A DNA stretch of 64,000 bases from a virus (lineage: Duplodnaviria; Heunggongvirae; Uroviricota; Caudoviricetes), in the IMG/VR virus record IMGVR_UViG_3300024272_000009; one strand, 5' to 3'. The number at the start of each line of letters is the position of its first letter. The stretch's first letter is position 1. Of this stretch, positions 4,034 through 63,078 are shown one piece after another. The notes under the pieces were generated by a model, which saw nothing but the letters and a program-made list of their open reading frames with translations, was not told the origin of the DNA and ran no database searches. Made by a program: the position numbers and the translations under genes.

Positions 4034-4534
4034 TTATTCATATAATATAAGGTCGCCGGTTCGGAGAGTTTCTTTTAGGTCGATAATTCTTTGGTTCGAA
4101 GATCCGCGATATTTCAGTCTAAGGTCTTTTAGTTCTTCTACGAATCTACCGTCGACTACTACATCGATTCCGGAATCTACTAGACCCTCTAATACTTCTT
4201 CTAACAAGTAGCCGGTCCAAAGCCAAACAGTTTTATCCGGATACACTTCCTTAAATCTTCTGGCAAGTCGACATACCTCAGCAAGGTTCCTAGGGTGCAA
4301 GGGTTCTCCACCAAGAATACTCAGTCCGCTAATATGATCCGGCTTAGCGAGTTTGAGGATACTAGTTAAAATATCCTCAGTAAACTCCTTGCCATGATCA
4401 AAGTTCCAAGTTTCCGGGTTAAAGCAGTTCTTACATCTGTGCTCGCAGCCACTAACGAAGAGACTGATCCGGCAGCCAGGGCCATTAGCAATATCTAAAC
4501 TTCTAATCTGACTATAATTCATTAGCACCCACAC
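4034..4534 (-). CDS. nrdG: anaerobic ribonucleotide reductase activating protein (radical SAM)
   Basis: 166-aa protein with the CxxxCxxC radical-SAM cluster motif (GCEHRCKNC). It overlaps the nrdD stop by 13 nt, the typical coupled nrdDG arrangement. Confidence 0.85.
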   Translation of the reverse strand: MWVLMNYSQIRSLDIANGPGCRISLFVSGCEHRCKNCFNPETWNFDHGKEFTEDILTSILKLAKPDHISGLSILGGEPLHPRNLAEVCRLARRFKEVYPDKTVWLWTGYLLEEVLEGLVDSGIDVVVDGRFVEELKDLRLKYRGSSNQRIIDLKETLRTGDLILYE

Positions 4535-6732
4535 TCATGACAGTCCATATGAACGAAGCGGTCTTTAATCTCTGCAGTTCTGCCTTGGTTAAAGAACTGA
4601 GTTCCGATGTAGCCACAAGTTCTTCTAGCAACATTCATCTTGCTTTGGTCTCTGTTACCACAGTTAGGACACTCCCAGACAAGCTTACCCGACTCATCTT
4701 CTACGATCATGATCTCACGATCCCAGCCACACTCCTGACAGTAGTCTGACTTAATGTTGAGTTCCGCATACATGATGTTATCGTAGATATACTGGATTAC
4801 TGTAAGTACTGCTTCGAGGTTATTCTCTAGGTTCGCACTTTCGATGTAGCTGATTGCACCGCCGGAAGAAAGTCTCTGGAACTTCGCTTCTACCGCAAGC
4901 TTTTCGAAAGGATCTATCTCTTTAGTTACATGAACATGATAACTATTAGTAATATAGTTCTTATCTGTAACTCCGGGAATTTCGCCCCAGCGCTTCTGCA
5001 AGCACTTAGCAAACTTGTAAGTAGTGCTCTCAAGAGGGGTTCCGTAGATTCCGAAGCCGAGATAGAGTTCCTTGTTCCACTCATCGCACTTCTTGTTCAT
5101 GTATCGCATGATCTCGAGTCCGAGTTCCTGGCCTTCTTCGGTTAGAAGGTCCTTACCAATAAGTTCTACCACACATTCCCACAAACCAGCGTATCCAAGT
5201 GAGATAGTCGAGTATCCGCCAGTAAGAAGCTTATCGATAGTCTCACCTTTCTTAAGTCTAGCGATAGCACCATGCTGCCAGAGGATGGGAGCGACGTCGC
5301 TTACTGTACCCTTGAGTCTTTCGTAGCGGCAGAGCAGGGCTTTATGACAGAGCTCAAGTACTTCATCGAAGTTCTTCCAGAAGCTACTAAGATCCTTCGA
5401 GTAGTTCGCACCATCGGATCCACACGCGACATCAACTAAGTTGACGGTGACTACACCCTTATTAAAGCGGCCGTACCACTTCTGTTTACCATTCTCATCA
5501 TACCAAGGAGAGAGACAGGATCTACAACCCATAGGAGCGAAGCATCCGCCTTCCTTGAGTTCCTTCATGATCTTCTCACTAATGTAATCCGGAACAAGTC
5601 GCTTAGCAGTACACTTTGCTGCAAGCTTAGTAAGATACCAGTACTCGGAATTAGGATACACGTTATCTTCTTCTAGAACATATACAAGTTTTGGGAACGC
5701 GGGGGAAACCCAGACGCCTTTCTCATTCTTGATGCCCTCAGTTCTCTGACGAAGAACTTCTTCGATAACCATCGCAAGATCTTTCTTAGTCCGCTCATCT
5801 TCTACTTCATTGAGATACATAAACACAGTGATGAAAGGGGCTTGACCATTTGTAGTGAGCAGGGTATTAACCTGATACTGGATAGTCTGAACGCCGCGCT
5901 TTACTTCTGCTCTTACACGCTTTTCTGTAATTGCAGCAATTTCGGCTTCAGCTTCTGTATCGAAACCTACCATATCGAATTCAGCTCTTACTTCATCCAT
6001 AATCTTACGCCTAGAGACGTCTACGAAAGGAGCAAGATGTGAGAGGGTGATTGACTGACCGCCATACTGGTTACTACTTACTTGTGCGATGATCTGTGTC
6101 GCAATATTACAAGCGGTAGCAAAACTATGAGGCTTCTCAACTAGAGTACCGGAAATTACGGTTCCGTTCTGAAGCATATCTTCGAGATTAACTAAATCAC
6201 AGTTATGCATCTTCTGAATGAAGTAATCTGAGTCATGGAAGTGAATAGTACCATCATCATGAGCCTTGACTACATCCTTAGGAAGAAGAAGTCTTCTGGT
6301 AATATCCTTACTAGTTTCTCCTGCCATGTAATCTCTCTGCGTAGAATTAACTACAGGATTCTTGTTCGCGTTCTCCTGCTTGAGTTCCTCATTTGCGAGG
6401 TTAATCAAACTCAAGATCGAATCATCGGTAGTGTTTGACTTTCTAACAAGCTCCTTATTGTATCTATATTTAATAAATGCACGAACGAGATTGTTGTAAT
6501 TTCGGGAGATGAGTTCGTCTTCGATCAGGTCATTAATGTCCTCGACTTTAATTGCCCTCTTATATACTTTACACTTCTCTTCTACAATAGTTGCAAGCTG
6601 ATCAATCTTTCTAGGACCAATCTGCTTTGATTTAATAACTTCCTGATTAGCCTGAGAAATTGCCTTGATAATCTTAGACTTATCGAATTCGACTTCTCTG
6701 CCATCACGCTTAATAACTCTTTGCATAATCAA
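4522..6732 (-). CDS. nrdD: anaerobic ribonucleoside-triphosphate reductase (class III RNR)
   Basis: 736-aa protein. The C-terminal glycyl-radical motif RTCGYIG is preceded by a Zn-ribbon (CQECG...CPNCG). Length and layout are typical of NrdD. Confidence 0.9.
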   Translation of the reverse strand: MIMQRVIKRDGREVEFDKSKIIKAISQANQEVIKSKQIGPRKIDQLATIVEEKCKVYKRAIKVEDINDLIEDELISRNYNNLVRAFIKYRYNKELVRKSNTTDDSILSLINLANEELKQENANKNPVVNSTQRDYMAGETSKDITRRLLLPKDVVKAHDDGTIHFHDSDYFIQKMHNCDLVNLEDMLQNGTVISGTLVEKPHSFATACNIATQIIAQVSSNQYGGQSITLSHLAPFVDVSRRKIMDEVRAEFDMVGFDTEAEAEIAAITEKRVRAEVKRGVQTIQYQVNTLLTTNGQAPFITVFMYLNEVEDERTKKDLAMVIEEVLRQRTEGIKNEKGVWVSPAFPKLVYVLEEDNVYPNSEYWYLTKLAAKCTAKRLVPDYISEKIMKELKEGGCFAPMGCRSCLSPWYDENGKQKWYGRFNKGVVTVNLVDVACGSDGANYSKDLSSFWKNFDEVLELCHKALLCRYERLKGTVSDVAPILWQHGAIARLKKGETIDKLLTGGYSTISLGYAGLWECVVELIGKDLLTEEGQELGLEIMRYMNKKCDEWNKELYLGFGIYGTPLESTTYKFAKCLQKRWGEIPGVTDKNYITNSYHVHVTKEIDPFEKLAVEAKFQRLSSGGAISYIESANLENNLEAVLTVIQYIYDNIMYAELNIKSDYCQECGWDREIMIVEDESGKLVWECPNCGNRDQSKMNVARRTCGYIGTQFFNQGRTAEIKDRFVHMDCHECGC

Positions 6733-7553: not shown

Positions 7554-7648
7554 AGGAGGAAACTTGTCTACAAGATTTTCATCTTATATTATATAATACA
7601 ATAAAAAATCGAAATTTTTAAATTGTCTCAGTAATTTTTTATGTATAC

Positions 7649-13820: not shown

Positions 13821-14414
13821 TTATTCCTCTCTTTCTGCCGCGGACTCTATATGAGAAAGAACATCTTGGATTATTTCTTTAGTAGCATCAGAAAGATTCT
13901 TCTCCGGGTCGTCCATAGCTTTATTATAATAAAAATCAGAAAGTTCTTTTAGGTCTCCCTTATCTATAGAGAAGGAACCCCAGTCGCAGAGCATCTCAAG
14001 AATATAGATATAAGGCATGTCTTCTCCCAGCCAGAATTCAGGGTGATGCTCATTGTTCATCCAGTGATGCTTCCATGCTTCCTCATACTCGAAGGTCTTC
14101 TCTCCGTTGCCATACCACTTCTGAGCGTAAGGCTCGAACTCTTCTTCCGAGAATTTAGACTCATCGTGTTCATTAATAACTTCATGGAAAGCATCGAGGT
14201 CGACGCCCTCGAAAACTTCAGGACAATTTTCTTCTAGCCAGGAAGCAAACTTCTTTACTCTTTCTTTATGTGCTTCTATATACTCTTGATATTCTTTCTG
14301 ATAATCCGCTCCGCCCTCTGCTATAGCGCTAAGAGCATGAAGAGCATTAATAAAATTCATATTCATCTTTTCTTGCTGCCTTTCTATATAGATTAAAAGC
14401 TTCCAAGGAAGCAA
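13821..14414 (-). CDS. hypothetical protein
   Basis: 197-aa acidic ORF with His/Trp-rich motifs (HHWMNNEHHPEFW). Confidence 0.55.
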   Translation of the reverse strand: MLPWKLLIYIERQQEKMNMNFINALHALSAIAEGGADYQKEYQEYIEAHKERVKKFASWLEENCPEVFEGVDLDAFHEVINEHDESKFSEEEFEPYAQKWYGNGEKTFEYEEAWKHHWMNNEHHPEFWLGEDMPYIYILEMLCDWGSFSIDKGDLKELSDFYYNKAMDDPEKNLSDATKEIIQDVLSHIESAAEREE

Positions 14415-14747: not shown

Positions 14748-15902
14748 TTAGTTCCACATATCTTCGTATATCTTAAAGTCGTCGGCAAAGGAAGTAGACT
14801 CACATAAGTCGGTATCTCCTATAATACCTTCGATAATTAAAAGCTTTAGAACATCTTCAAAAGTATCACAGTTATTATCATAGCCGTCGACTTGAACTAA
14901 GTAGCAAGGAACATAAGGTTTAAAAATTATTTTTACTCCGACTCCGTTATTAAGAGTAATAGCAAGTATTCTATCATCTAATATATTAATAGTATACTTA
15001 CAAAATCCGTCTGAGTCAATTTGGGCTAAAAGCTTTTTATATCTTTCTGTTTGGTCTGGATAATTTTTAGTAGAAGTCTTATTAGTTGTCTGTGCAGCAG
15101 AATTGTTTAAATTTATCTTTTTTCCATTCTTATCTACAAACTCATTAAGTGCCGACTCACAGAGATTAGTATCTTTAATAATTTTTCCTATTACTAATAA
15201 TTCCAGAATATCTTTTTTGTAGTCACAGCCTTTAAGCTCACGTCCAAGCATTCTCAGAGTATATGTGTCAGTAGCAGGGTCATAGATTATTTTAATATCT
15301 AAAGTTTTATTATTAGGACGGTTTACTGTAATATTAAGTTCGGTAGCATTTAAATCATTTAATGTATAAGTGCTAATGCCATCAGCATCTATTTGTGCCA
15401 CTAGACTTTTATATCTGTCTGTCTGATCAACATTGTTTTTGATAGAAGTACTTGTGGTGGGTGTCGAAGAAGAGATACTTACTTTATTTCCTTTACTGTC
15501 TAGCCACTCACATAGTTTATCATATTCCTTTGTACCAGATACAGGAACATTATAATAACCCTCGAGAGCTTCTAATAAAGTCTCCCATGATTCTCCTGCA
15601 TAGTTATCTACACATTTACCGTTTTTATAGATACTCATGTGCCAACGATCATCGGTAAAAATTACTACGGCAATTAGTTCTTCTTGACCAGTTGGTATCT
15701 TACGTAATTCTCTGTAAGTAAAGCCAGTATCATTAAGACCTAGCACTTTAGAATCAAGCACTTGAGAACCTCTGTTTCTCATTATATAATAAAGTAAACT
15801 AATAAACTTATCTTTATTTGTTTTAGTCATAGTAGCGGCCGTTGCAGACGAAGCCTGTCCAATTTTATTTCCGTTACCATCTTTCCATTCGTTTAATTTC
15901 AT
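14748..15902 (-). CDS. hypothetical protein with internal ~115-aa tandem domain duplication
   Basis: 384-aa ORF. Residues around NVDQTDRYKSLVAQIDADG...DTNLCESA repeat as NYPDQTERYKKLLAQIDSDG...DTDLCEST. An xEWxDxxGNK linker recurs three times. Confidence 0.6.
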   Translation of the reverse strand: MKLNEWKDGNGNKIGQASSATAATMTKTNKDKFISLLYYIMRNRGSQVLDSKVLGLNDTGFTYRELRKIPTGQEELIAVVIFTDDRWHMSIYKNGKCVDNYAGESWETLLEALEGYYNVPVSGTKEYDKLCEWLDSKGNKVSISSSTPTTSTSIKNNVDQTDRYKSLVAQIDADGISTYTLNDLNATELNITVNRPNNKTLDIKIIYDPATDTYTLRMLGRELKGCDYKKDILELLVIGKIIKDTNLCESALNEFVDKNGKKINLNNSAAQTTNKTSTKNYPDQTERYKKLLAQIDSDGFCKYTINILDDRILAITLNNGVGVKIIFKPYVPCYLVQVDGYDNNCDTFEDVLKLLIIEGIIGDTDLCESTSFADDFKIYEDMWN

Positions 15903-15952: not shown

Positions 15953-15992
15953 AAAGAACAATACAAAGATCTGAATCTTTATATTGTTCTTT
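15953..15992 (-). terminator. hairpin terminator after the lipoprotein gene
   Basis: agaacaata (15955-15963) pairs with tattgttct (15982-15990). The stem sequence is shared with the terminator at 18301-18340. Confidence 0.6.
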
Positions 15993-16003
15993 ATAATATT
16001 CTT

Positions 16004-16393
16004 TTACTTATTTACATCGAAATCAGGAAGGGCTGTATAGAAGTGTACCTTATAGTGGAAGGGATCAGTAGAAGTGCCCGTAATATCTTCGACTACATAG
16101 ATAACATATTCATTAAGATAGATGTAATTCTTTTTGTACTCATCAGCGCCGGTCTTACAAGTAACAACAAGCTCACTCGTAGATGTATTAGAAAGACTCA
16201 TATAACCTTCCATTTCCATAACAATGAGGTCTGTTCTAGCATTATAAACCGTGATCTTTCTGAGACATTGGAAATTGTCGGCTGCCTGGGAAAGATTGTG
16301 GTTTACATTGTCTGCTGCAGTGCAGGAAGCAAAGCCGACGCAGCAAGTTCCCAGAACAATAATACAAAGAAGTAGTGCAAAAAGTTTTTTCAT
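16004..16393 (-). CDS. putative lipoprotein
   Basis: 129-aa ORF. The N-terminus MKKLFALLLCIIVLGTCCVGFASC carries a signal peptide and a lipobox-like FASC. Confidence 0.6.
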   Translation of the reverse strand: MKKLFALLLCIIVLGTCCVGFASCTAADNVNHNLSQAADNFQCLRKITVYNARTDLIVMEMEGYMSLSNTSTSELVVTCKTGADEYKKNYIYLNEYVIYVVEDITGTSTDPFHYKVHFYTALPDFDVNK

Positions 16394-16451
16394 TTTTTAA
16401 ATATCCTTTCAAATTTAATTTATTATATTATACAATATTAACTATTTAAAA

Positions 16452-17138
16452 TTACGCGGCCTTCTGAAGTTTAGTCCAGTTATACCAACCGTAGAAAGCA
16501 TTAGCAGTCCAAGCAATATACATAGCAACCATAGACCACTGACCGAGAATAATAAACATAACCAAACTTACTACATCGATAAGAATCCAGCACGCCCACT
16601 GTTCTCTATATCTCCAAATCATAAGAAGCTGGGCAATAACAGCAAGAGCAACAGTCATAGCATCAAGATAAGGAAGGGTGCTTCCGAGAACGGCTTCACC
16701 GAAATAACCAAGAAGGAAAGTACTTACCGCTACTACGCCAACAGACCCAAGCCACTGCCAAAGCTTAAACTTCTTTGCCTTAACCTGTTCAGTACCGTCG
16801 TCATTCTTCTTCATATTCTTCTTCCACATAAAAACGCCGAAGATACAAACAATAAAGTAGAACACCTGTTCGCCAAACTCAAGATAGAGAGCAAGGTCCC
16901 AGCAAATAATCATATAAGTAATCATCTGCACAAAGTTAAAGATATACGAAGAAATCTTTCCCTTTGCTGTGAGAGCGACACAGATAACACCCGCAAGTCC
17001 ACAGATAATTCCGATAGCAGTGTCAGGGACGATGAAATACATAATTACCTGAAGCAAAATCAAGGAAGCGAAAAAGATTCTCTCAAAAGCCGTGTAGCCG
17101 TTCCAAAATTCATTCTTAAGCCATTTTACCATTTTCAA
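16452..17138 (-). CDS. pnuC: nicotinamide riboside transporter PnuC-like membrane protein
   Basis: 228 aa with about 7 predicted TM helices. It is Trp-rich, with conserved W/N-containing helices typical of PnuC. It overlaps the nadR-like gene by 23 nt. Confidence 0.65.
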   Translation of the reverse strand: MKMVKWLKNEFWNGYTAFERIFFASLILLQVIMYFIVPDTAIGIICGLAGVICVALTAKGKISSYIFNFVQMITYMIICWDLALYLEFGEQVFYFIVCIFGVFMWKKNMKKNDDGTEQVKAKKFKLWQWLGSVGVVAVSTFLLGYFGEAVLGSTLPYLDAMTVALAVIAQLLMIWRYREQWACWILIDVVSLVMFIILGQWSMVAMYIAWTANAFYGWYNWTKLQKAA

Positions 17139-18225
17139 TAATCTCCTTTACATCATCAACAATTTTCTTAAAGTTATTATAATATCCGCCGTCGAGGATA
17201 ACTACCTTATCCCAATTACCTGAAGCTTTGATATTGTTACAAAGAATCTCAAAGAGTTCTCTTCTTTCTGTATCGCCGCTGAAAGCCATGTATCTAGTAT
17301 GGTCGTCTACAAATACTCCGTGAGGGCAGAGAAGATAAATTTTATCCCAACGACATTTCTTAGTGATCGCATCCGCAGCAACAGCGATTTCTTTAAACTC
17401 TTCCTCAGTTAGGTCGAGATCAGGGTCTCTGTGATAATACTCAGCATACATTCGAGTAGTCATACTATCAGAGTCTGCGAAGAAGATTCCCTGATTACTT
17501 GGCGAGTTGATGAGTTTCTTATTCATCTGATACTGACCGTCAAGAAAAGCAAGATAGTCAGCCCCGTCGAGTTCCCACTCAGAAATATAACTTTCTTCCA
17601 TATAGTCTCTTGCATATTCAGTAGAATAGGGTGCGTTGAAATACTTACCAAGGTCTTTTACAAGAGTAGTTTTTCCTTCACTTGCTGTGCCGCAGATAAG
17701 AATATTAGTACTGAAGACTCTTCTGAAGGGAAAAGTAATTTTATCCCAATACTTAATAGGATTATGTCTGATCATTGTCGCAGAAATAGGGTTAAGTGTT
17801 CTATCAAGTAACACCACTTCATAGCCAAGACTTTCAAGATGAGTAGCATATGCCTCCTCGCTTACATAGAAAACAGCCTCGCACAAATCTGTAGCATTTC
17901 TGATAATCTCATTTACCTTAAGCATAAACTTATTCCACCCATTAGGATAAGCTTCGATACCAAGCTCAGTCTCATCGATAGGGTAAACAGCCACAAGGTC
18001 GTCGTCGGCAAAGAACTCTCTTACATAACGATAACGCTTTCTAAGAGGCATAAGCTCACCACCACGATCTCCGTCTCTACCGTCTACGATAACAATACAA
18101 CCACCGTCGCATTCTTTCTTAGCTCGCATAATAACATCAAGGTGTCCCTGATGAAGCGGAGCAAAAGTTCCGAAGACAACACCAACTGTTTTACCTTGCA
18201 AAGGCTTCTGATAAGTATAAATCAT
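17116..18225 (-). CDS. nadR: NadR-like bifunctional NMN adenylyltransferase / ribosylnicotinamide kinase
   Basis: 369 aa. The N-terminal nucleotidyltransferase motif is GVVFGTFAPLHQGHL (GxFxPxHxGH). The C-terminal P-loop kinase domain carries ICGTASEGKTT. There is no N-terminal HTH, as in Haemophilus-type NadR. Confidence 0.8.
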   Translation of the reverse strand: MIYTYQKPLQGKTVGVVFGTFAPLHQGHLDVIMRAKKECDGGCIVIVDGRDGDRGGELMPLRKRYRYVREFFADDDLVAVYPIDETELGIEAYPNGWNKFMLKVNEIIRNATDLCEAVFYVSEEAYATHLESLGYEVVLLDRTLNPISATMIRHNPIKYWDKITFPFRRVFSTNILICGTASEGKTTLVKDLGKYFNAPYSTEYARDYMEESYISEWELDGADYLAFLDGQYQMNKKLINSPSNQGIFFADSDSMTTRMYAEYYHRDPDLDLTEEEFKEIAVAADAITKKCRWDKIYLLCPHGVFVDDHTRYMAFSGDTERRELFEILCNNIKASGNWDKVVILDGGYYNNFKKIVDDVKEIIENGKMA

Positions 18226-18291
18226 TTACGTCCTCCTTAATCACTTTGTAATATATAATACAATATGAAATTTATTAAATTAATAAATTAA

Positions 18292-18340
18292 TAGAAAAAA
18301 AAAGAACAATACCGAGATAAAATTCTCAGTATTGTTCTTT
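18292..18340 (-). terminator. strong Rho-independent terminator after the SPFH gene
   Basis: Perfect 12-bp stem: aaagaacaatac (18301-18312) and gtattgttcttt (18329-18340). On the minus strand a T9 run follows. Confidence 0.8.
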
Positions 18341-18350
18341 ATACTATTCT

Positions 18351-19547
18351 TTAGTTATTACCGATAATGATATTAGAAACGTCGCCGTCACCTACAAAAG
18401 TATCAGGAAGCTTTCCGTCCCAAGACTGAGTGTAATAATACTCAATAAGTCTCTGAGCACCAATCTTAAGGTCAGCTTCAGTTACAGGAGTGCCATCTGC
18501 ATAACACACAGTATACTTAGTGTGTGTATCATCAATCTTTTCTGTCTTTACTGTCCAACCATTAATAGAAGCAAGTCTCTGGAGCGCAATAGCTGCATCC
18601 TTCTGACCCTGATACTCTGCTGCGTTTGCACTAATCTCAGCAACTTTTGCATCTGCCTCTGCCTTAATTTTATCAACTTCGGCCTGTGCATTTGCATTGA
18701 TCTTATTTACCTCAGCCTGAGCTGCAGCTTCGACCTTAGCACGCTCTGCAGCTTGCTGAGCTTCCATAGTAAGTCTTTCCTGCTCAATCTGAGCCTGAAG
18801 CTTATTCTGAGCAGCAACAGCTTTAGCCTCAACTGCATTAGTAAAGCTATCGGTAAAGTCCATATTCTCAATAGCAGTAGAAGATACATCAATATTATAC
18901 TTCTGAAGATTTGTAGTAAGCAAAGTCTCAATTTCTACAGCAACTTCTGCACGCTTACCGATAAGTTCCTCTGCCGTATATTTTGCAATAATAGTTTTTA
19001 CTGTTTCCTGAATTGTGGGATTTACAACAGTCTCAAGATAACCAGTTCCAATATCTCTATAGAGGTTCTGAGCATTAGTCTTTGAAATCTGATAGTTTAC
19101 AGTATATGTAGTATTTACTTCCTGGATGTCGGAGCTAAAGCAAGGAAGCTCAATAGTAGTCTTCTGTACTCTGTTATCCATCTTAGTTACAGACTGCCAA
19201 GGTGCCTTGAGATGAAAACCTGCATCAAAGGTATAATTCTCAACCTTACCAAATGTTCTTACAATACCAACATGACCGGTATCAACTGAAGCAATACAGC
19301 CGAAGAAAGTAAGAAGAAGACCGAGGAAAATACCTGCAACTACAGAAACTACACTGAACTTTGCAAGAGGCTTTGTAACTGTACTCTTCATTGTAGTCTG
19401 ATAACCGCCATAAGCGTTTCTTACGCGATTGCCTCCTTCGTCGAGTACGTACTCTTCAGTCTTCTCAGTCTTCTTATACTGTGCAAGACAAACAGCGGTA
19501 ATAATACCGGCGATGAGGAAGATAATGCCAAAAATAAATCCAACCAT
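18351..19547 (-). CDS. SPFH/band-7 (HflK/C-, prohibitin-like) membrane protein with coiled-coil and C-terminal domain
   Basis: 398 aa with two N-terminal TM segments. The SPFH core shows an HVGIVRTFGKV...DIQEV...YQI pattern. It is followed by an A/Q/E-rich coiled-coil (AQAEVNKINANAQAEVDKIKAEADAKV) and a C-terminal globular domain. Confidence 0.75.
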   Translation of the reverse strand: MVGFIFGIIFLIAGIITAVCLAQYKKTEKTEEYVLDEGGNRVRNAYGGYQTTMKSTVTKPLAKFSVVSVVAGIFLGLLLTFFGCIASVDTGHVGIVRTFGKVENYTFDAGFHLKAPWQSVTKMDNRVQKTTIELPCFSSDIQEVNTTYTVNYQISKTNAQNLYRDIGTGYLETVVNPTIQETVKTIIAKYTAEELIGKRAEVAVEIETLLTTNLQKYNIDVSSTAIENMDFTDSFTNAVEAKAVAAQNKLQAQIEQERLTMEAQQAAERAKVEAAAQAEVNKINANAQAEVDKIKAEADAKVAEISANAAEYQGQKDAAIALQRLASINGWTVKTEKIDDTHTKYTVCYADGTPVTEADLKIGAQRLIEYYYTQSWDGKLPDTFVGDGDVSNIIIGNN

Positions 19548-20094: not shown

Positions 20095-20135
20095 AAATAA
20101 AAATAACCTTATTATATAATACAATAAGGTTATCT
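20095..20135 (-). terminator. hairpin terminator after gene 20149..21438
   Basis: 11-bp perfect inverted repeat: ataaccttatt (20103-20113) and aataaggttat (20123-20133). Confidence 0.55.
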
Positions 20136-33858: not shown

Positions 33859-35920
33859 CGGTACGACCGGTCATAGTAACTTTAGTACCAAGAGCCTCAT
33901 TACAACCAATTAGGTTAACAAGTGCATCTTCAGCACTTAGTGCTTCTGTAAATACAAAAGTAGTAGCTTCAGAGTTACCAGACTTAAAAGTAATATTACC
34001 TTCTACTGAGAGCTTCTCATTTAAGTAGGAACAGTTAGTAAGTGTAAAGCCTTCAACATTTCCGCAGGTTTCAGCTAAGCTCTTTGCAATCTGACTTTCC
34101 AGCGAGGCTTCCTGAAGCTCTTCAATGCCTTCAACGATAGTAGCTAGATCATTTTGTACTTCTAGGCCCTCAGTTGCAGGTGTTTCTTCTTCAGCAGTGT
34201 CAGTGCTAGTAGCGCTTTGTGCTCTAAGCATAACACCTTCAAAGTTCTTTTTAATAGTATCAAAATAGTTATCTAGCTGGTCAAGCTCAAGCTTGCCTTC
34301 AAAGAACTCACACAAGAAAGCTGCTTTTGGATCCTCTTTATTTTCAGCTAGATAAATAAAAGCGGGACCGTTTTCAGAAAGCATGCTCCAACCCTTTGCA
34401 GCAGCCTCAGCGTCTTTGTAAGTGCCTTTCTCTTGAACCTCTTTTGGTACTAAGCCCTTTTGATCATAAGCGGGAGCAGCAGTAAATGGCTTGCCTTTGG
34501 CATCTTTACCATCAAAGCCAATAACTAAGAAAGTTTTAAATCTACGGTTTTCTTCTTCTGGAACAACTCCGGTTTTGTCAACTTTTGCTTTGGCATAATC
34601 TTTTAGGGCGTTGGCTAGAATCCAGTCTGCTCTTTCTTCTCTGGTTGTAGCATCTTTAGTTAGTGAATCAATAGCAGCAGAAATTTTATTTTTAAAACTA
34701 CCACCAGCCTGTTTTACTTTTTTTAACAATGCTTTACCAAGGTCTAGCAGATTTCCTTCAGTAAGCAGAGCCTCTTCTAAAGACTCTTCAACTTCAGCTT
34801 CTTCTTCTTTCTCGTCATTGAGCATTGCTCTAACAGAAGTGTCAGAAATAGGCTTCTTAAATTCAGGTGTGTTAATGAGTTTTTCAAACTCGTCTGCCGA
34901 AACTTCTAGGTCGGCATCTTCATGAAGCTCTTCTGTGAGAGCTTCAATAATATCATCAAGTTCCTTGTCTTCTTCTGAGATCTCTTCTACAGGCTCCGCA
35001 GTCTCATCAACTACAGGCTCTTCAATAGTTTCATTTTTAACTGCATCAGGAAGAGCTGCCTCAAGGTCTGCCTTAAAGGCATCAATATTTCTTTGGATAG
35101 CAACCTTAACTTGATCGTTAGTTGCTTTTTCAAGCTTCTCTTCCTCTTGAGCAATAGCATCTCTTAGATACTCAATATACTCACTGTGTGCTTTAAGCTT
35201 ATCATCAAGGTCTTTATCATCAGCTAAGTCTTCTACAAGAGCCTCGCCAGTATGTTCTACAAAGTGTGATTCTTCAACCTCTTCATCAGAAGTTTCGTCT
35301 TCAATATTAAGGTCCAGCTCATCAAGATTTAGATCCTCAAAATCCTCACTGTCAGTAAGGTCGTTAGTAGTTTCCTCATCCACAGTTTCCTCGGCAGACT
35401 CTTCACTGGTGTCCTCTAGAGGAAGTTCGTCAGTAGGGAGTTCTTCCTCAGCCTCAGCTTCCCCAACTTTACCAACAAGAGTATAGCCAGACTCGTTTCC
35501 ACAGTGCTGACATACTTCATTTACATTTACAGTTAGTGGATCATCCTCAGATTCTACAATGTCTTCCTTATCTTTATAGAATAGTGTCATACACTGAGGA
35601 CATTGCATAATATATTTACCAACATAGGAAGTTAGTAAGTCCTCAGGCGAATCAGCATCAAGATCAACAATTTTCTCAATACGAGCAAGCTTAGCTTTTG
35701 CAACTTCTGCTTCACGTGCTTCTTGAGCATCTGTTAAATCTTCAGAATTGTTGATATCATAGTATTCTTCAAACAAAGAATCAAACTTAGTCTTGCGAGA
35801 GAAGATCTCTGTAAGTGCAGGTCTATTAGCTCTAATACCTGGTTCTGCTACTGGAATATCTATCTCATCAAGAGCCTTGAAAGCTGACTCAAAGTCAAAT
35901 TTAGTGACAGATTCTTTCAT
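33824..35920 (-). CDS. acidic zinc-ribbon protein (virion-associated candidate)
   Basis: 698 aa. An N-terminal CPQC...CQHCG ribbon is followed by a very long D/E-rich region. Confidence 0.45.
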   Translation of the reverse strand: MKESVTKFDFESAFKALDEIDIPVAEPGIRANRPALTEIFSRKTKFDSLFEEYYDINNSEDLTDAQEAREAEVAKAKLARIEKIVDLDADSPEDLLTSYVGKYIMQCPQCMTLFYKDKEDIVESEDDPLTVNVNEVCQHCGNESGYTLVGKVGEAEAEEELPTDELPLEDTSEESAEETVDEETTNDLTDSEDFEDLNLDELDLNIEDETSDEEVEESHFVEHTGEALVEDLADDKDLDDKLKAHSEYIEYLRDAIAQEEEKLEKATNDQVKVAIQRNIDAFKADLEAALPDAVKNETIEEPVVDETAEPVEEISEEDKELDDIIEALTEELHEDADLEVSADEFEKLINTPEFKKPISDTSVRAMLNDEKEEEAEVEESLEEALLTEGNLLDLGKALLKKVKQAGGSFKNKISAAIDSLTKDATTREERADWILANALKDYAKAKVDKTGVVPEEENRRFKTFLVIGFDGKDAKGKPFTAAPAYDQKGLVPKEVQEKGTYKDAEAAAKGWSMLSENGPAFIYLAENKEDPKAAFLCEFFEGKLELDQLDNYFDTIKKNFEGVMLRAQSATSTDTAEEETPATEGLEVQNDLATIVEGIEELQEASLESQIAKSLAETCGNVEGFTLTNCSYLNEKLSVEGNITFKSGNSEATTFVFTEALSAEDALVNLIGCNEALGTKVTMTGRTVDKVFITESFN

Positions 35921-43192: not shown

Positions 43193-45241
43193 TTATAAAA
43201 TAATTATACCATTCAAAATATCTTGGTATGTTTCATATTCTTTTTTCTTTTGATAATCTACTTTCTCAACGGCTATAGCATTATCCATATAAATCCTAGT
43301 TAGCTCTTCCTGGAACTCGAGGATCATTTGTTGTTTTCTAAAGTCATCTGCTACCGCATTAACTTCCAAGGATGTTTCAAGGCTCTCGCCATAATCGTAA
43401 GAGTATTCTTCTGCAAATTCGCTTGCAAGGAAGAGTGCACCACACACGGCGTCGGCCTGGTCTTTTGAGAAGTTTTGAGGGTGATCGATATGACCATCAG
43501 AAAGTCTTTCCAAACTAACTATCTCGTTAGTAAGTAATTCACAATCTTTATATAACTGCAGGTGTCTTTCATATATTGCAGATTTAAAGAAAGCATATGG
43601 TAAGCATTGTTTTGTAGCACTATCTACGCGGTCCACAGATAAGATTTTAGTATTAAAATTATCTGCTTTAAGTTGCTGTTGAATCTGCGCAGATTGATAA
43701 GTATCGCTTGATACTCCTTTGATTGCAAAGCCTCGGTCACGAAGCCAGCGTATAAAGTTTCTATTCTTCTCAAAGCTTACTTGGAAACCTTTAGGTGCCT
43801 TAACAGAAACAGAGAACGCGACCTTGAATTCAAGTTCTTTGCTTGGGTCATTTGTTCCGGCTTGTGGTGGCCTTTTACCTGTTATCCAGATACCGGCGAT
43901 ACCAGTTTTGTCTCCAGAAAGCGACATATCGAGATGTATAAACAGAGGTCTTGAAAGATCTCGTGGATTTACTCTTGATATATCAAAGAAGTTAGAATAC
44001 TGTAATATATCATCTGGGCTGTTGCCAACTTCGATAATATCTTTTGTAAATGGATTTTTATATGTGTCTGTCTTAATCTGATTTAAACGAACACCGGAGA
44101 TATACTTAGTAGAACTTGAAGTAGAAATACCGGCGTTATCAGTGAGCGCAAGGTCAATGTTATCTTCAAAAGCTTCTCTATAAATCGGAGGAACTTTTAG
44201 CATGAAATAACCTTTTTCTCTGTATGCATTTATTTCATCTTCTGTCGCTCCGACTGGAAGTAGCTCATGTGCTAGGAACTTATTTCCGACAGCAACATAG
44301 AAGCTTCCTGGGTCATCCGGCGAACCTTTATCATTTCTGACTATCCACTGAGGTTCGTCAACAATTAGAGTAGTTTTACTCTCATTTTGGCGTTTCATTT
44401 CAATATAAGATTCCATGAAAGCCTGTTCAGAGTCTTTTGATGAAGCGATAATATTCATCGTAGGAAGGTAGGTACCTTTACCAAAACGAGAAATCATACG
44501 GGCGTCGATCTGAGAAATCATTTTCTTAAGCTTAGCTTTTTGTTTCTCTACATTATTACCGACACCGAAGTTAACTTCATCCGAGAAGTTAGAGAATAGT
44601 GCACGACCAACTACGTGTCTATTACTAGAACCGAATACAAGCTCAATTCCTTTAGGCGGTTGCCACTGAGGGTTTGTCCTACTAGCATTCATATTGCCTC
44701 GTTCCATGAACCAATCAGAGCTTTGGAGCAGCTGCTGCATCTTATCCCAGCCGACACCTTGTGCTGCTTCCAATGTTACGTTTAACATTGAAAATGTGAT
44801 TTTATCGATAGGCTGGAGGCCATAATAAGTATAAGGATCTTTTAAGCAAAGCATTCTATACAGCAGGTAAAGCTGACAAACGACTGCAATAAAAGACTTA
44901 CCAAGACCGATAGAACCAGTTAATACAATAGTATTATATCTAGTTGTCAAGTTATCTGGAAATATCTCTTTAAGCTTTTCTATCCAGTACGGGAATACTG
45001 TGCACTTTCTTTCTCCAGTAAACTCATCTTTTATGTAGAGGCCTCGGCCGAGATAACGTTCATCAGAGATAAACGTCATAATATCTACTGGGATTTCTTC
45101 ATAGTCAGAGTATTTAAGATCTTCTAATATACCGGAGAAACCTTCTTGTGAGTACTCTTTTAAAATTTCAAGGGCGAGAGCTCTTTCCTCAGGAGATAGA
45201 TTATTTAGTTGTTCTAAATTTAGTTCGTTTGATATCATCAA
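43193..45241 (-). CDS. terminase large subunit
   Basis: 682 aa. The N-terminal P-loop ATPase reads LTGSIGLGKSF. A C-terminal RNase-H-like nuclease region carries conserved Asp residues. It sits in front of the portal. Confidence 0.7.
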   Translation of the reverse strand: MMISNELNLEQLNNLSPEERALALEILKEYSQEGFSGILEDLKYSDYEEIPVDIMTFISDERYLGRGLYIKDEFTGERKCTVFPYWIEKLKEIFPDNLTTRYNTIVLTGSIGLGKSFIAVVCQLYLLYRMLCLKDPYTYYGLQPIDKITFSMLNVTLEAAQGVGWDKMQQLLQSSDWFMERGNMNASRTNPQWQPPKGIELVFGSSNRHVVGRALFSNFSDEVNFGVGNNVEKQKAKLKKMISQIDARMISRFGKGTYLPTMNIIASSKDSEQAFMESYIEMKRQNESKTTLIVDEPQWIVRNDKGSPDDPGSFYVAVGNKFLAHELLPVGATEDEINAYREKGYFMLKVPPIYREAFEDNIDLALTDNAGISTSSSTKYISGVRLNQIKTDTYKNPFTKDIIEVGNSPDDILQYSNFFDISRVNPRDLSRPLFIHLDMSLSGDKTGIAGIWITGKRPPQAGTNDPSKELEFKVAFSVSVKAPKGFQVSFEKNRNFIRWLRDRGFAIKGVSSDTYQSAQIQQQLKADNFNTKILSVDRVDSATKQCLPYAFFKSAIYERHLQLYKDCELLTNEIVSLERLSDGHIDHPQNFSKDQADAVCGALFLASEFAEEYSYDYGESLETSLEVNAVADDFRKQQMILEFQEELTRIYMDNAIAVEKVDYQKKKEYETYQDILNGIIIL

Positions 45242-45286
45242 TTCGAAAATCTCCTATCTATATATTATACAATATTTTAAAAATAG

Positions 45287-54539: not shown

Positions 54540-56408
54540 CTAATCAATACTGATAATTCCTCTGCATTTAGGGTAGGCAGAGCAACCATAGAATAGTTTT
54601 CCAAATCTGCTTCTTCTAACTACCATAGGTTTGCCGCAATTTGGGCACTCTTTCTCTGGCATCTCTGGAGCAATACCGGTTTCATTAGTGGCTCCAATAA
54701 TATCTTGTAAATTTTTATAGAAATTTTCCATAAAGTCAAGCCAAAGAATTTTACCGCCGGCAATTTTATCAAGGCTTTCTTCCATTTCTTTAGTATAATT
54801 TAAATTTATTAAAGTAGGGAATGACCTATTACAGTAGTCAGCTAATTGCATACCACGATCAGTAGGAACAATGTGCTTTTCTTCCAACTTTGCGTAACCT
54901 CTTGTTGGGCTTAAAATTGTTTCTACTATTGTTACATAAGTAGATGGTCGGCCGATACTTCTATTCTGAAGCTCTTTAACTAAACTTGCCTCTGTATACC
55001 TAGGCTTAGGTTGTGTAAATTTTTTAGCTGCCTCAAGCTCAGCATCTTCCAAGGTTTCGCCAACGGTAAATATAGGCGTAGAAGCTATGTCAGAAGTATC
55101 ATCGTATTCATATACTGCTTTATAACCAGCACTTAAAAGCTCTTTTGAGCTAAGCGTAAATTTATGCCCGTTATTATTAATTATATAAATTGTTTCTGAA
55201 ATAACTGCATTTGGCATTGCTGAAGCAACAGTACGTTGCCATATTAGCCTATAAACTTTTGCAAGTAGTTCATTGCCAGTGGTAGCCTCTACAATATCTG
55301 GAGTCAGATTCGGGTTTGTGACTCTAAGGGCTTCGTGCCCATCTTGGTCTGTTTCTTTTTGTTTAGACTTTCTTGGCCCTACATAACTGGCTGCGCCGTA
55401 AGTATTTTCTATAAAAGTTTTTAGTTCTGGAATAAATTCTTGTGCAAATTCCGTAGAGTCTGTACGCATATACGTAATCAAACCAATGTGTTCGCCAGCT
55501 AGACTAATTCCTTCAAAGAGTTTTTGCGCACAGCTCATAGCATCTTTTACTTTAAGACCGAGCTTATTCGCTGCCTCCTGTTGAAAAGTAGCAGTACAAA
55601 ACGGCGGTTTTGGAGACTCTTGGTGCTTAACCACTTTGGTATCTTCAATTATATAAGCACCACCTTTGCAGTTGTTTATAACCGCATCAACGTCAGCTTG
55701 CCTTGAAAATTTATCAATAACCTCGTCATTATACCCAGCATATTTTGCTTTAAAAGCTGTACCATTTTTTATAAAGTTTAAATATAGATTAAAATACATT
55801 TCTGGTACAAAATCCATAATTTCTTTTTCTCTGTCTGAAACAAGTTTAAGTCCAACGGACTGACACCGCCCAACTGACTTAGCACCAAGATACTTTTTCG
55901 CTAAAGGACTAAGACCGTAGCCAATAAGTTTATCTATCATCATTCTGGTTAGCCCAGCATTTACGATATTATCATCAAAAGGTACAGGATTTTCTAATGC
56001 ATATACAACTGCTTTAGGTGTTATTTCATGCATAACGATCCTAAAGCACTTGTCAACAGGCAGTTCACAAAATTTAATTAAGCTCCACCCAATTACAAAG
56101 CCTTCTCTATCTTGGTCGGTTCCAATATAAATTTTATCTGCAATTTTTGCCTGTGCGATAATATCTGCTACTACTTTTTGCTTATCATCAGCAATAGCCA
56201 GATTCATTCTAAATTTTTGCTTTGGATATATGCCTGAATTATAAGCAGGTCCACCATCGCCAAGTTTCATAATGTGACCGACAGAGGCCATTACTACTGC
56301 TTTTGCATAACCAGCCTTTTTCAGTATTCCTGAGATAGTTTTTACCTTATTAGGCGATTCGACTATTACAAGTATCCTTTCATTGTTTGTTTTCACTTTG
56401 CTGCTCAT
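54540..56408 (-). CDS. type IA DNA topoisomerase (Topo I/III-like) with C-terminal zinc ribbon
   Basis: 622 aa. The TOPRIM motif reads ILVIVESPNKVKTI. The acidic triad reads IYIGTDQDREG. The C-terminal ribbon is CPNCGKPMVV...CSAYPKC. Confidence 0.85.
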   Translation of the reverse strand: MSSKVKTNNERILVIVESPNKVKTISGILKKAGYAKAVVMASVGHIMKLGDGGPAYNSGIYPKQKFRMNLAIADDKQKVVADIIAQAKIADKIYIGTDQDREGFVIGWSLIKFCELPVDKCFRIVMHEITPKAVVYALENPVPFDDNIVNAGLTRMMIDKLIGYGLSPLAKKYLGAKSVGRCQSVGLKLVSDREKEIMDFVPEMYFNLYLNFIKNGTAFKAKYAGYNDEVIDKFSRQADVDAVINNCKGGAYIIEDTKVVKHQESPKPPFCTATFQQEAANKLGLKVKDAMSCAQKLFEGISLAGEHIGLITYMRTDSTEFAQEFIPELKTFIENTYGAASYVGPRKSKQKETDQDGHEALRVTNPNLTPDIVEATTGNELLAKVYRLIWQRTVASAMPNAVISETIYIINNNGHKFTLSSKELLSAGYKAVYEYDDTSDIASTPIFTVGETLEDAELEAAKKFTQPKPRYTEASLVKELQNRSIGRPSTYVTIVETILSPTRGYAKLEEKHIVPTDRGMQLADYCNRSFPTLINLNYTKEMEESLDKIAGGKILWLDFMENFYKNLQDIIGATNETGIAPEMPEKECPNCGKPMVVRRSRFGKLFYGCSAYPKCRGIISID

Positions 56409-56562
56409 TAGATCTCTCCTTATGTAAACTTTCTTCTAAGAGTTGTCTAATAACAGCAGAAATACTAACTGAACGTTTGAAAGCTTCTAATCTAAGCTCT
56501 TCTCGTAATTCGTCAGATATTTCTAAGCTTATCATCTTCTTTGCCATTATTTTATTCCTCAC
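56380..56562 (-). CDS. ribbon-helix-helix DNA-binding protein
   Basis: 60 aa. KMISLEISDELREELRLEAFKRSVSISAVIRQLLEE shows the RHH beta-alpha-alpha pattern. It overlaps the topoisomerase start by 29 nt. Confidence 0.5.
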   Translation of the reverse strand: MRNKIMAKKMISLEISDELREELRLEAFKRSVSISAVIRQLLEESLHKERSNEQQSENKQ

Positions 56563-57347
56563 TTATGAGACTTTTTGTGTACTTTTGACACAAAGTTTTT
56601 AAACTCGGCTCTTTGTCTGGCCTTTTCAGAGGCACCTGCCGTCGCAATAGCTTTGTTAGCTGCCTTATTTGCCTTTGCATGTCGGTCTGTCTCGTGCTCA
56701 GACTCTACTACTGTAATACGACCATTGATAACATTTTCAGTAAACTTGAGATTTCTAAACTGCTTAGCAGCAACATCGTCTGATTCGATAACAGTCTTTA
56801 AACTTTCGATACGCGCAGGTAAGAAGGTATCTTTGTAGAAAGGAATAATCTCAGCAAGGTCTGACTCTTCGATCTTGCCATCTTCTTCAATGTCAGAAAC
56901 AAGGCCAAGCGCACTAGGAAGAACTCCGTCAATAATTTGAGCCTGTTGATCAAACATGCTTGCCGCAATGCCTATAAGCTTGTTATCTTCGTACTTAAAA
57001 TCATCATTGTAATAAACAACAGTAATTTCTTCAGGTCTACCGATTACAATCTCTTTGCCAGGCATTGATGCACAGGTTTCGATAACAATGTTGAGGCCCT
57101 TCTTTTTCGTGATAATAGGGTTAATAAAAGTCTTAATCTGGTCATTAAATCTTAAACAAAAGATACGCTTATTAATACCAATCTGAGGAGCAGAAAGTGC
57201 AATAAGATCTGGATTCGCATTAAGAACTTCTTTGATCTTGCTGATAATCTCAGTGCCTTCCTCAGTTTTAGGACCTTCTTCTGTTAAAAATGTTAAAGGT
57301 TCTACTGGTGTGCTAAGTACTTCAGCATCAGTAATAATTGTTTCCAT
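56559..57347 (-). CDS. peptide deformylase-like protein with degenerate catalytic motif
   Basis: 262 aa. PDF motif I is present as ALSAPQIG, and motif II is ETCAS (EGCLS-like, Cys kept). In place of HEXXH the sequence reads QQAQIIDG. A C-terminal K/A-rich extension of about 100 aa follows. Confidence 0.5.
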   Translation of the reverse strand: METIITDAEVLSTPVEPLTFLTEEGPKTEEGTEIISKIKEVLNANPDLIALSAPQIGINKRIFCLRFNDQIKTFINPIITKKKGLNIVIETCASMPGKEIVIGRPEEITVVYYNDDFKYEDNKLIGIAASMFDQQAQIIDGVLPSALGLVSDIEEDGKIEESDLAEIIPFYKDTFLPARIESLKTVIESDDVAAKQFRNLKFTENVINGRITVVESEHETDRHAKANKAANKAIATAGASEKARQRAEFKNFVSKVHKKSHK

Positions 57348-57393
57348 TTAAATATCTCCTTATAAATCTAAATATACAATATATTATACATTA

Positions 57394-63017: not shown

Positions 63018-63078
63018 GTTAGTCTAAGTAACTCCTTAATATATTATACGATATTTTAAATAAATACTGACTTTGTAT

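Follow-up and report, generated by a model that had tools for sequence, protein, structure and literature searches.

Phages can rebuild the nicotinamide adenine dinucleotide (NAD+) that NAD+-depleting defences destroy. Two such two-gene systems are NARP1 (Adps and Namat) and NARP2 (Nampt and a nicotinamide mononucleotide (NMN) adenylyltransferase (NMNAT)/Nudix protein), which recycle intracellular ADP-ribose and nicotinamide. After an earlier listing of phage NadR (Iyer et al. 2022), an operon of NadR and PnuC was proposed as a further NAD+ reconstitution pathway (Osterman et al. 2024). This pathway was demonstrated and named NARP3 by Yan et al. (Science Advances, August 2026, PMC13464706). 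Its two proteins, Bas30_86 and Bas30_87, import nicotinamide riboside (NR), make NAD+ and restore the NAD+ level, and they rescue phages from Sir2-HerA and DSR1, both genes being needed (PMC13464706). By mutagenesis, each of the residues N45, Q94 and N180 of Bas30_87 was found to be essential, and the module was described as largely confined to phages of Enterobacteriaceae (PMC13464706). More generally, Pnu transporters act by facilitated diffusion coupled to metabolic trapping by a linked kinase (Pnu transporter literature).

Here we describe a NadR-PnuC gene pair at positions 16452-18225 of a 64,000-nucleotide stretch of tailed-phage DNA (IMG/VR record IMGVR_UViG_3300024272_000009, Caudoviricetes), the whole of which is hereafter called the window. 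An earlier note on this DNA had proposed that the pair imports NR and converts it to NAD+, as a possible counter to NAD+-depleting immunity. Our analysis supports this interpretation, and we consider it probable that the pair is a NARP3-type NAD+ reconstitution cassette of a large myovirus-like gut phage. The same note presented the route as a distinct, import-dependent variant. The import-dependent pair does match NARP3, but the idea had been proposed in 2024 and was published in 2026. NadR-PnuC is in fact already a module annotated in PHROGs, the hypothesis that it counters NAD+ depletion is correct and already in print, and the copy in the window is a divergent member.

Organization of the gene pair

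The two genes and their predicted translation signals are the following.

17116-18225, minus strand: NadR-type enzyme gene, 369 residues, ATG start, without a helix-turn-helix (HTH) domain
18232-18238, minus strand: Shine-Dalgarno (SD) sequence AAGGAGG, 6 nt before the NadR ATG
16452-17132, minus strand: PnuC-family transporter gene, 226 residues from the conserved ATG, predicted nicotinamide riboside facilitator
17143-17148, minus strand: SD sequence AAGGAG for PnuC, within the 3' end of the NadR gene, conserved in relatives

In the list of open reading frames (ORFs), PnuC starts at a TTG at 17138, which gives an ORF at 16452-17138 and a protein of 228 residues. We rejected this start. In five relatives the corresponding position reads ATGAAC, ATCGAA, ATAGAA or ATTGAA, so that the TTG is mostly missing, whereas an ATG matching that at 17132 is present in every one of them. 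It lies 10 nt after the AAGGAG sequence and leaves an overlap of 17 nt with the NadR gene; independent gene calls in relatives also give 17 nt. Because the ATG at 17132 is conserved and the TTG is not, the PnuC protein is most likely 226 residues long. The earlier note had described the genes as translationally coupled with a 23-nt overlap. Both ORFs are indeed present and coupling is plausible from this arrangement, but the overlap has to be corrected to 17 nt.

The NadR-like enzyme

In profile searches, the NadR-like protein passed the Pfam domain cutoffs for both PF01467 (E=2.3e-8, residues 17-154) and PF13521 (E=6.7e-18, residues 175-337). It also matched TIGR01526 (E=4e-65) and phrog_3462, annotated as 'nicotinamide-nucleotide adenylyltransferase' (E=2.3e-71). 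The match to the full-length NadR profile of 411 positions begins at profile position 58, and the enzyme is therefore without the HTH domain. When its sequence was compared with those of solved structures, the best match was NadR from L. lactis (6GYE, E=1.6e-66, residues 7-346), with further matches to 9X6F (E=3.8e-34), E. coli NadR (8X7F) and the H. influenzae structure 1LW7. A Foldseek search with the AlphaFold2 model agreed with this family assignment: the top eight matches were all NadR structures, aligned over their full length with E values from 4e-25 to 1e-15.

Two domains could be delimited.

17731-18192, minus strand: NMN adenylyltransferase domain, about residues 12-165, with GTFAPLHQGH at 19-28, R64 and ISATMIR at 147-153
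17188-17712, minus strand: ribosylnicotinamide kinase (RNK, P-loop) domain, about residues 172-346, with Walker A GTASEGKT at 179-186, E203, Walker B D251 and the lid residues D308 and R311

Both the NMNAT signature GxFxPxHxGH and the P-loop RNK domain that the earlier note had read in this protein are thus present, the former as GTFAPLHQGH and the latter with GTASEGKT, and ISATMIR fits ISxTxxR, the second nucleotidyltransferase motif. Conservation was assessed in an alignment of 82 diverse full-length representatives, taken from clusters at 50% identity. The positions conserved in at least 90% of them are, besides M1, G19, P23, H25, G27, H28, R64, R153 and W160 in the first half, and G179, S182, G184, K185, L188, E203, D251, D308 and R311 in the second, and the protein of the window carries them all. 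They correspond to the HIGH motif, ISxTxxR, Walker A, Walker B and lid described for NadR of L. lactis and H. influenzae. The HxGH and Walker A residues on which the earlier proposal depended are therefore conserved, as are Walker B and the lid. By analogy with these enzymes, the protein is predicted to convert NR and ATP to NMN, and then NMN and ATP to NAD+.

The PnuC-like transporter

The assignment of the second protein is equally consistent. It matched PF04973 (E=1.2e-43, 149.5 bits for a cutoff of 27.3), TIGR01528 (142.1 bits for a cutoff of 42.45) and phrog_1880 (E=3.4e-46). It also aligned over its entire length with PnuC from N. mucosa (4QTN, E=2.2e-37) in the sequence search of solved structures. 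Its model (predicted local distance difference test, pLDDT, 80.8) shows the seven-helix core with the optional N-terminal helix expected of PnuC, and 4QTN was the sole significant fold match in the Protein Data Bank (PDB), with a template modelling (TM) score of 0.84. The membership in the PnuC family that had been proposed earlier is hence confirmed by both profile and structure.

The ligand-binding motif of the sixth transmembrane helix, WxxW(x)3[D/N], is present as W179-A-C-W182-I-L-I-D186, and Q168 and the C-terminal NxxYG are also kept. Since the gene is linked to an enzyme that contains an RNK domain, we take NR as the likely substrate of this transporter.

Comparison with NARP3 and other known systems

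The structure 9X6F could be tied to NARP3, because all 17 residues named for Bas30_86 coincide with its chain at a constant offset of 6; it is thus the enzyme Bas30_86. NARP3, known from Escherichia phage TrudiRoth and related T5-like phages (PDB 9X6F/9X6H), resembles the pair of the window in several respects. The NadR-like gene precedes the PnuC-like gene, and the two are co-oriented and abutting; the enzyme is HTH-less and combines NMNAT and RNK domains, and the transporter has the PnuC fold with an extra N-terminal helix. The carrier is a tailed phage of lytic type, and the predicted pathway, from NR to NMN to NAD+, is the same. The gene junction differs, with an overlap of 17 nt in the window but genes 1 nt apart in NARP3. 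So does the carrier: here an uncultivated myovirus-like gut phage, probably of an anaerobic Gram-positive host, and in NARP3 a siphovirus of Enterobacteriaceae.

Bas30_86 shares the absence of the HTH domain with NadR from L. lactis (6GYE/6GYF/6GZO), whose Walker A, Walker B and lid align with those of the window enzyme. Unlike the latter, L. lactis NadR is a cellular housekeeping enzyme, not borne by a phage, and the sources do not describe it in a cassette with pnuC. With PnuC from N. mucosa (4QTN), the window protein shares the full-length fold including the additional N-terminal helix, together with WxxW, Q168 and NxxYG, but Q99, N189 and Y217 of the bacterial protein are replaced by C96, D186 and W208.

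The closest pair in the phage database is that of Lak-B7, in which a NadR of 385 residues is followed by a PnuC of 220 residues with a 14-nt overlap; the identities are 38.5% and 39.5%, and its PnuC has the same Asp as D186 of the window. At the nucleotide level, short stretches of the NadR gene (17598-18153) are about 80% identical to Prevotella phages Lak-B1 to Lak-B9 (at about 31.9 kb); they span the motifs that are best conserved, HQGHLDVIMRAKKE and the Walker A region. Overall, the window pair is closer to the L. lactis-type NadR and to the Lak pair than to the T5-like pair.

Other arrangements also occur. In the Lactobacillus phage the order is reversed, PnuC then NadR, and a Nudix ADP-ribose pyrophosphatase is added, whereas in Seunavirus five small ORFs separate the two genes. 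NARP1 and NARP2 share with the window cassette the two-gene principle, but their enzymes are unrelated and, unlike them, the cassette needs an imported precursor and a transporter.

Related loci, linkage and selection

The pair is strongly linked in its relatives. In each of 16 related loci, taken from European Nucleotide Archive (ENA) contigs, metagenome-assembled genomes (MAGs) and IMG/VR, PnuC comes directly after NadR, and wherever examined the PnuC start ATG and the 17-nt overlap match those of the window. The flanking genes, in contrast, are reshuffled or missing: this holds for YqeY, SPFH, the VG64-family lipoprotein and DUF5662 and, in one lineage, for GmrSD, Mom, methyltransferases and LigA. 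As the two genes are linked in all these loci while their flanks are shuffled, NadR-PnuC behaves as one unit within a variable accessory region. Both genes are under purifying selection, judging from the ratio of nonsynonymous to synonymous substitutions (dN/dS) against five relatives, which is 0.04-0.11 for NadR and 0.04-0.14 for PnuC.

A scan of IMG/VR with a single protein returned 10 viral contigs with the same pair. Metagenome searches gave 2,858 NadR-like proteins (E<=1e-20) and 1,163 PnuC-like proteins (below the threshold used). The top 120 metagenome matches of each protein are 78-94% identical, and some of the contigs reach 100-234 kb. In a tblastn search of 50,697 phage records, 433 gave a NadR-like gene and 798 a PnuC-like one. 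Neighbouring NadR and PnuC genes occur in T5-like, Lak, Lactobacillus, Enterococcus, Vibrio and Aeromonas phages, and the order NadR then PnuC was seen in all of these groups apart from the Lactobacillus phages.

Two of the related loci deserve a separate mention. In locus L002, an ENA/UMGS1550 contig of 122 kb, the pair is 86% and 78% identical to that of the window and has as neighbours GmrSD, Mom, DNA methyltransferases, a PemK toxin, IS605 OrfB/TnpB and an NAD+-dependent DNA ligase; this neighbourhood is rich in defence and anti-defence genes and quite unlike that of the window. In locus L007 (6001-7108, MAG contig JAZRQP010000051.1), NadR is frameshifted after about codon 37 while PnuC is intact, which points either to a faulty assembly or to a copy in decay.

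Candidate transcription signals around the cassette

Candidate transcription signals were found on both sides of the pair.

18301-18340, minus strand: terminator-like hairpin with a 17-bp stem and a T-run, which ends the upstream SPFH/Band 7 gene and would insulate the cassette (terminator scan)
18252-18264, minus strand: promoter-like motif ATTGTATTATATA of extended -10 type, lying 27 nt before the NadR ATG
16424-16436, minus strand: copy of the promoter-like motif, ATTGTATAATATA, directly past the PnuC stop and before the VG64-family lipoprotein gene
15953-15992, minus strand: terminator-like hairpin with the same stem sequence as that at 18301-18340

The motif belongs to a recurrent 13-mer, ATTGTATWATATA, of which we counted 10 occurrences in the window (at most one mismatch) where 0.58 were expected. 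The coding strand carries nine of the 10 copies, most of them in gaps immediately 5' of genes, including those for NadR, YqeY and the terminase.

87-99, 7585-7602, 16424-16436, 18252-18264, 20113-20125, 45261-45273, 57380-57392 and 63040-63052, minus strand: copies of ATTGTATWATATA
35602-35614, plus strand: copy of ATTGTATWATATA

From this distribution, the 13-mer is probably the phage's own promoter, of extended -10 type. Read in this way, it would make NadR-PnuC a self-contained, moron-like transcription unit. The terminator scan found no terminator between PnuC and the VG64-family lipoprotein gene, and read-through from the cassette to the hairpin at 15992-15953, the probable end of the transcript, is possible.

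The hairpins at 18301-18340 and 15953-15992, which share the stem AAAGAACAATA...TATTGTTCTTT, flank a block made of NadR, PnuC and the VG64-like gene. They could be a repeated terminator element or the footprint of a cassette insertion. A search of the whole window with Rfam at gathering thresholds detected no riboswitch, of the NAD+ or pnuC type, and no other structured RNA; no tRNAs were found in the window.

Genomic context and probable host

The window consists of phage genes that run on one strand; the terminase and several others were located as follows.

43193-45241: terminase
4034-6732, 54540-56408 and 56559-57347, minus strand: anaerobic ribonucleotide reductase NrdD with its radical-SAM activase, type IA topoisomerase and peptide deformylase

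It also encodes a portal, a prohead protease, a tail sheath, a tail tube and a T4-type baseplate protein, together with a SbcC-like nuclease and a helicase. The carrier is a large myovirus-like gut phage. The tail and baseplate genes stop at about 20149 and the NadR-PnuC pair lies just beyond, between them and the replication genes, within an accessory block that contains YqeY, SPFH/Band 7, the VG64-family lipoprotein and DUF5662; the helicase and the anaerobic ribonucleotide reductase genes follow. The claim that the pair sits in a structural-gene context is thus only partly right: the tail/baseplate block is nearby, but the cassette is located just past it, among accessory genes.

The gene directly upstream of the pair encodes an SPFH/Band 7 protein (18351-19547, minus strand). 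An SPFH/Band 7 gene also directly precedes the pair in the T5-like phage saus132 (L010, 730-1674, annotated 'lipoprotein'), the two proteins being 22% identical. We considered a three-gene module of SPFH, NadR and PnuC and rejected it as a conserved feature. The terminator and the promoter-like motif separate SPFH from NadR, SPFH adjoins the pair in L018 but in no other of the roughly 16 close relatives, and many phages that lack NadR have an SPFH gene. Because most close relatives have no SPFH gene at this place and because such genes are common without NadR, the adjacency looks coincidental.

The gene that follows PnuC (16004-16393, minus strand) encodes a protein of 129 residues with a lipoprotein-type signal peptide (…GFASC), which matches PF25682 (Phage_VG64) and phrog_478. 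The phrog_478 label 'recombination directionality factor' seems unlikely for a secreted lipoprotein. In relatives, the gene of this VG64-family lipoprotein is found either upstream or downstream of the pair. Next, a protein of 384 residues (14748-15902, minus strand) has an internal duplication, with the repeats …YKSLVAQIDADG… and …YKKLLAQIDSDG…, each ending in …DTNLCES. The DUF5662 protein (13821-14414, minus strand; phrog_20637) also lies just downstream of the cassette, and neither of these two proteins has an assigned function.

Several features bear on the host. A strong SD core precedes 33 of the 49 window ORFs, for a background of 3.3%, and the best match of the SPFH protein is a protein of a Faecalibacterium phage. 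The anaerobic ribonucleotide reductase, the strong use of SD sequences and this match suggest that the host is probably an anaerobic member of the Bacillota. The set formed by NrdD, its activase, topoisomerase and deformylase would fit a large phage whose host is a strict anaerobe. MAG labels of the relatives were discarded as a source of host information, the six bins being in disagreement (Clostridia, Eubacterium, Faecalimonas and Lachnospiraceae versus Bacteroidales and Paludibacteraceae).

Proposed function and alternative explanations

In the mechanism that we propose, the cassette, with its own promoter-like element, would be translated as a coupled pair. The PnuC-family membrane protein would let NR diffuse into the infected cell. 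There, the NadR-type enzyme, which is HTH-less, would use its P-loop kinase domain to phosphorylate NR to NMN and so trap it metabolically, and its N-terminal adenylyltransferase domain would join NMN and ATP into NAD+. The NAD+ pool destroyed by NADase-type defences of the host (SIR2, TIR, DSR and others) would then be refilled and replication could continue. Since such a cassette draws on an external precursor, it would depend neither on breakdown products nor on phosphoribosyl pyrophosphate.

A number of observations weigh against this reading. With the saus132 pair, the enzyme shares only 32% identity and the transporter 30%. The NadR-like protein stays under the NCBIfam trusted cutoffs (TIGR01526, 220.1 against 341.15 bits; NF005988, 140.1 against 201), and we therefore regard it as a divergent NadR. 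Seventeen residues have been shown or proposed to be needed in Bas30_86, namely K10, F11, S37, E80, P84, G89, F110, S112, D115, V139, I141, K163, D164, R167, K168, E230 and D275. At the aligned positions of the window enzyme, six are identical (F21, E85, G96, S122, I147 and D294), two are conservative replacements (Y120 and R169) and nine differ. The RNK domain of the AlphaFold2 model is weak (pLDDT of about 50-58, compared with about 90 for the NMNAT domain), because the underlying alignment is shallow, made of sequences 83-94% identical. As a result, the TM score to NadR structures is only about 0.46, and the model was kept out of residue-level inference.

In the transporter, the NR-binding residues N45, Q94 and N180 of Bas30_87 align with G48, C96 and D186, so that none of the three is conserved. 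Only one of the four NR contacts of N. mucosa PnuC is identical, and two are similar (Q124, Q196, N214 and Y242 in the numbering of PMC13464706 correspond to C96, Q168, D186 and W208). N. mucosa PnuC itself has a Gly at the position aligned with N45, and the motif of the Pnu family allows D or N at the third pocket position (Pnu transporter literature). Because D186 falls within this motif and is common to other NadR-linked PnuC proteins of phages, those of Lak and Lactobacillus phages, we ascribe the pocket differences to variation among lineages and see only a small chance that the substrate preference has changed.

The role of NARP3 itself was established by heterologous expression and not in the native phage, as its authors note (PMC13464706). 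Finally, no other NAD-related gene (NAD+-dependent ligase, Nudix, Nampt, Sir2 or macro domain) was found in the window, where about 60 ORFs were searched via Pfam or PHROGs and by tblastn with the ligase of the related contig, a few ORFs of less than 100 residues being left out.

As the pair is only about 30% identical to the validated one and keeps none of the three Bas30_87 residues, we infer its function: NR as substrate, transport and the two enzymatic steps from the intact motifs and from experiments on homologues, and the anti-defence benefit from the NARP3 experiments.

The same biochemistry could have been selected for another reason, the cassette being a general auxiliary metabolic module that supplies NAD+ for the phage's own needs (an NAD+-dependent ligase, redox metabolism or a large burst) or makes up for a host that produces little NAD+, whatever NADase defence is present, if any. 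On sequence this is hard to tell apart from counter-defence, with which it may coexist. In gut jumbo phages, pnuC, nadR and further genes of NAD+ synthesis are frequent and have been read in the literature as an independent NAD+ supply that complements the host, and NadR-like and PnuC-like genes are found chiefly in phages of medium or large size. In the related contig with the 86% identical NadR, the NAD+-dependent DNA ligase gene lies no more than about 7 kb from the pair, but neither LigA nor any other NAD+-consuming gene was found in our 64-kb window, and the only experimental phenotype of a homologous pair is rescue from NAD+-depleting defences. We hold a purely metabolic role to be rather unlikely.

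We give less credit still to the idea that the transporter, and hence the pair, handles another substrate, such as nicotinic acid riboside or some other vitamin or pyridine nucleoside; we judge this very improbable. It was considered because the pocket residues differ from those of two characterised NR transporters. The equivalent of Q94 in Bas30_87 is a Cys throughout the clade, D186 recalls the thiamine transporter PnuT, in which the Asp is essential, where the NR-transporting PnuC has an Asn, and the Pnu family includes thiamine and riboflavin transporters. However, in the window the transporter gene is plausibly coupled in translation to that of an enzyme with intact NMNAT and RNK signatures, and as a rule genes of the Pnu family are linked to the gene of the kinase that acts on their own substrate. 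Moreover, the Asp variant is shared with NadR-linked PnuC proteins of Lak and Lactobacillus phages, the published motif permits it, and TIGR01528, as noted, is matched at 142 bits.

That the two genes are not working phage genes at all, but bacterial host DNA (through misassembly or recent passive capture) or decaying passengers, is effectively refuted. Close relatives do occur in metagenome bins of six different bacterial taxa, and NadR is frameshifted in L007. Yet these bins are taxonomically discordant and their contigs, of 106-162 kb, are phage-like; in the window the pair lies among continuous one-strand phage genes, with terminase, portal, protease, sheath, tube and baseplate. The ten viral IMG/VR contigs with the same pair, the dN/dS values of 0.04-0.14 and the use of the phage's recurrent promoter-like motif also argue against it.

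A NARP3-type counter-defence cassette hence remains the reading that we prefer. We see only a slight possibility that the pair represents a separate, old branch of NARP3-like cassettes in uncultivated gut phages of anaerobes, Lak phages included, with a precursor import tuned to the metabolites of the gut and not a copy of the enterobacterial system. The enzyme would then be nearer to the HTH-less NadR of Gram-positive bacteria, and the remodelled pocket (C96, D186 and W208) could shift the affinity or the precursor, for example to nicotinic acid riboside or to some other pyridine nucleoside derived from the gut.

Significance

The cassette of the window unlocks no new mechanism. For annotation, pairs of this kind may be labelled candidate anti-defence modules. 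Together with its metagenomic relatives, the locus shows that an abundant lineage of large gut phages, with contigs of up to 227 kb, has this cassette as a fixed component, and it is present as well in Lak megaphages, which widens the known range of import-dependent NAD+ reconstitution beyond the phages of Enterobacteriaceae and suggests that NAD+-depleting immunity matters in anaerobic gut communities.

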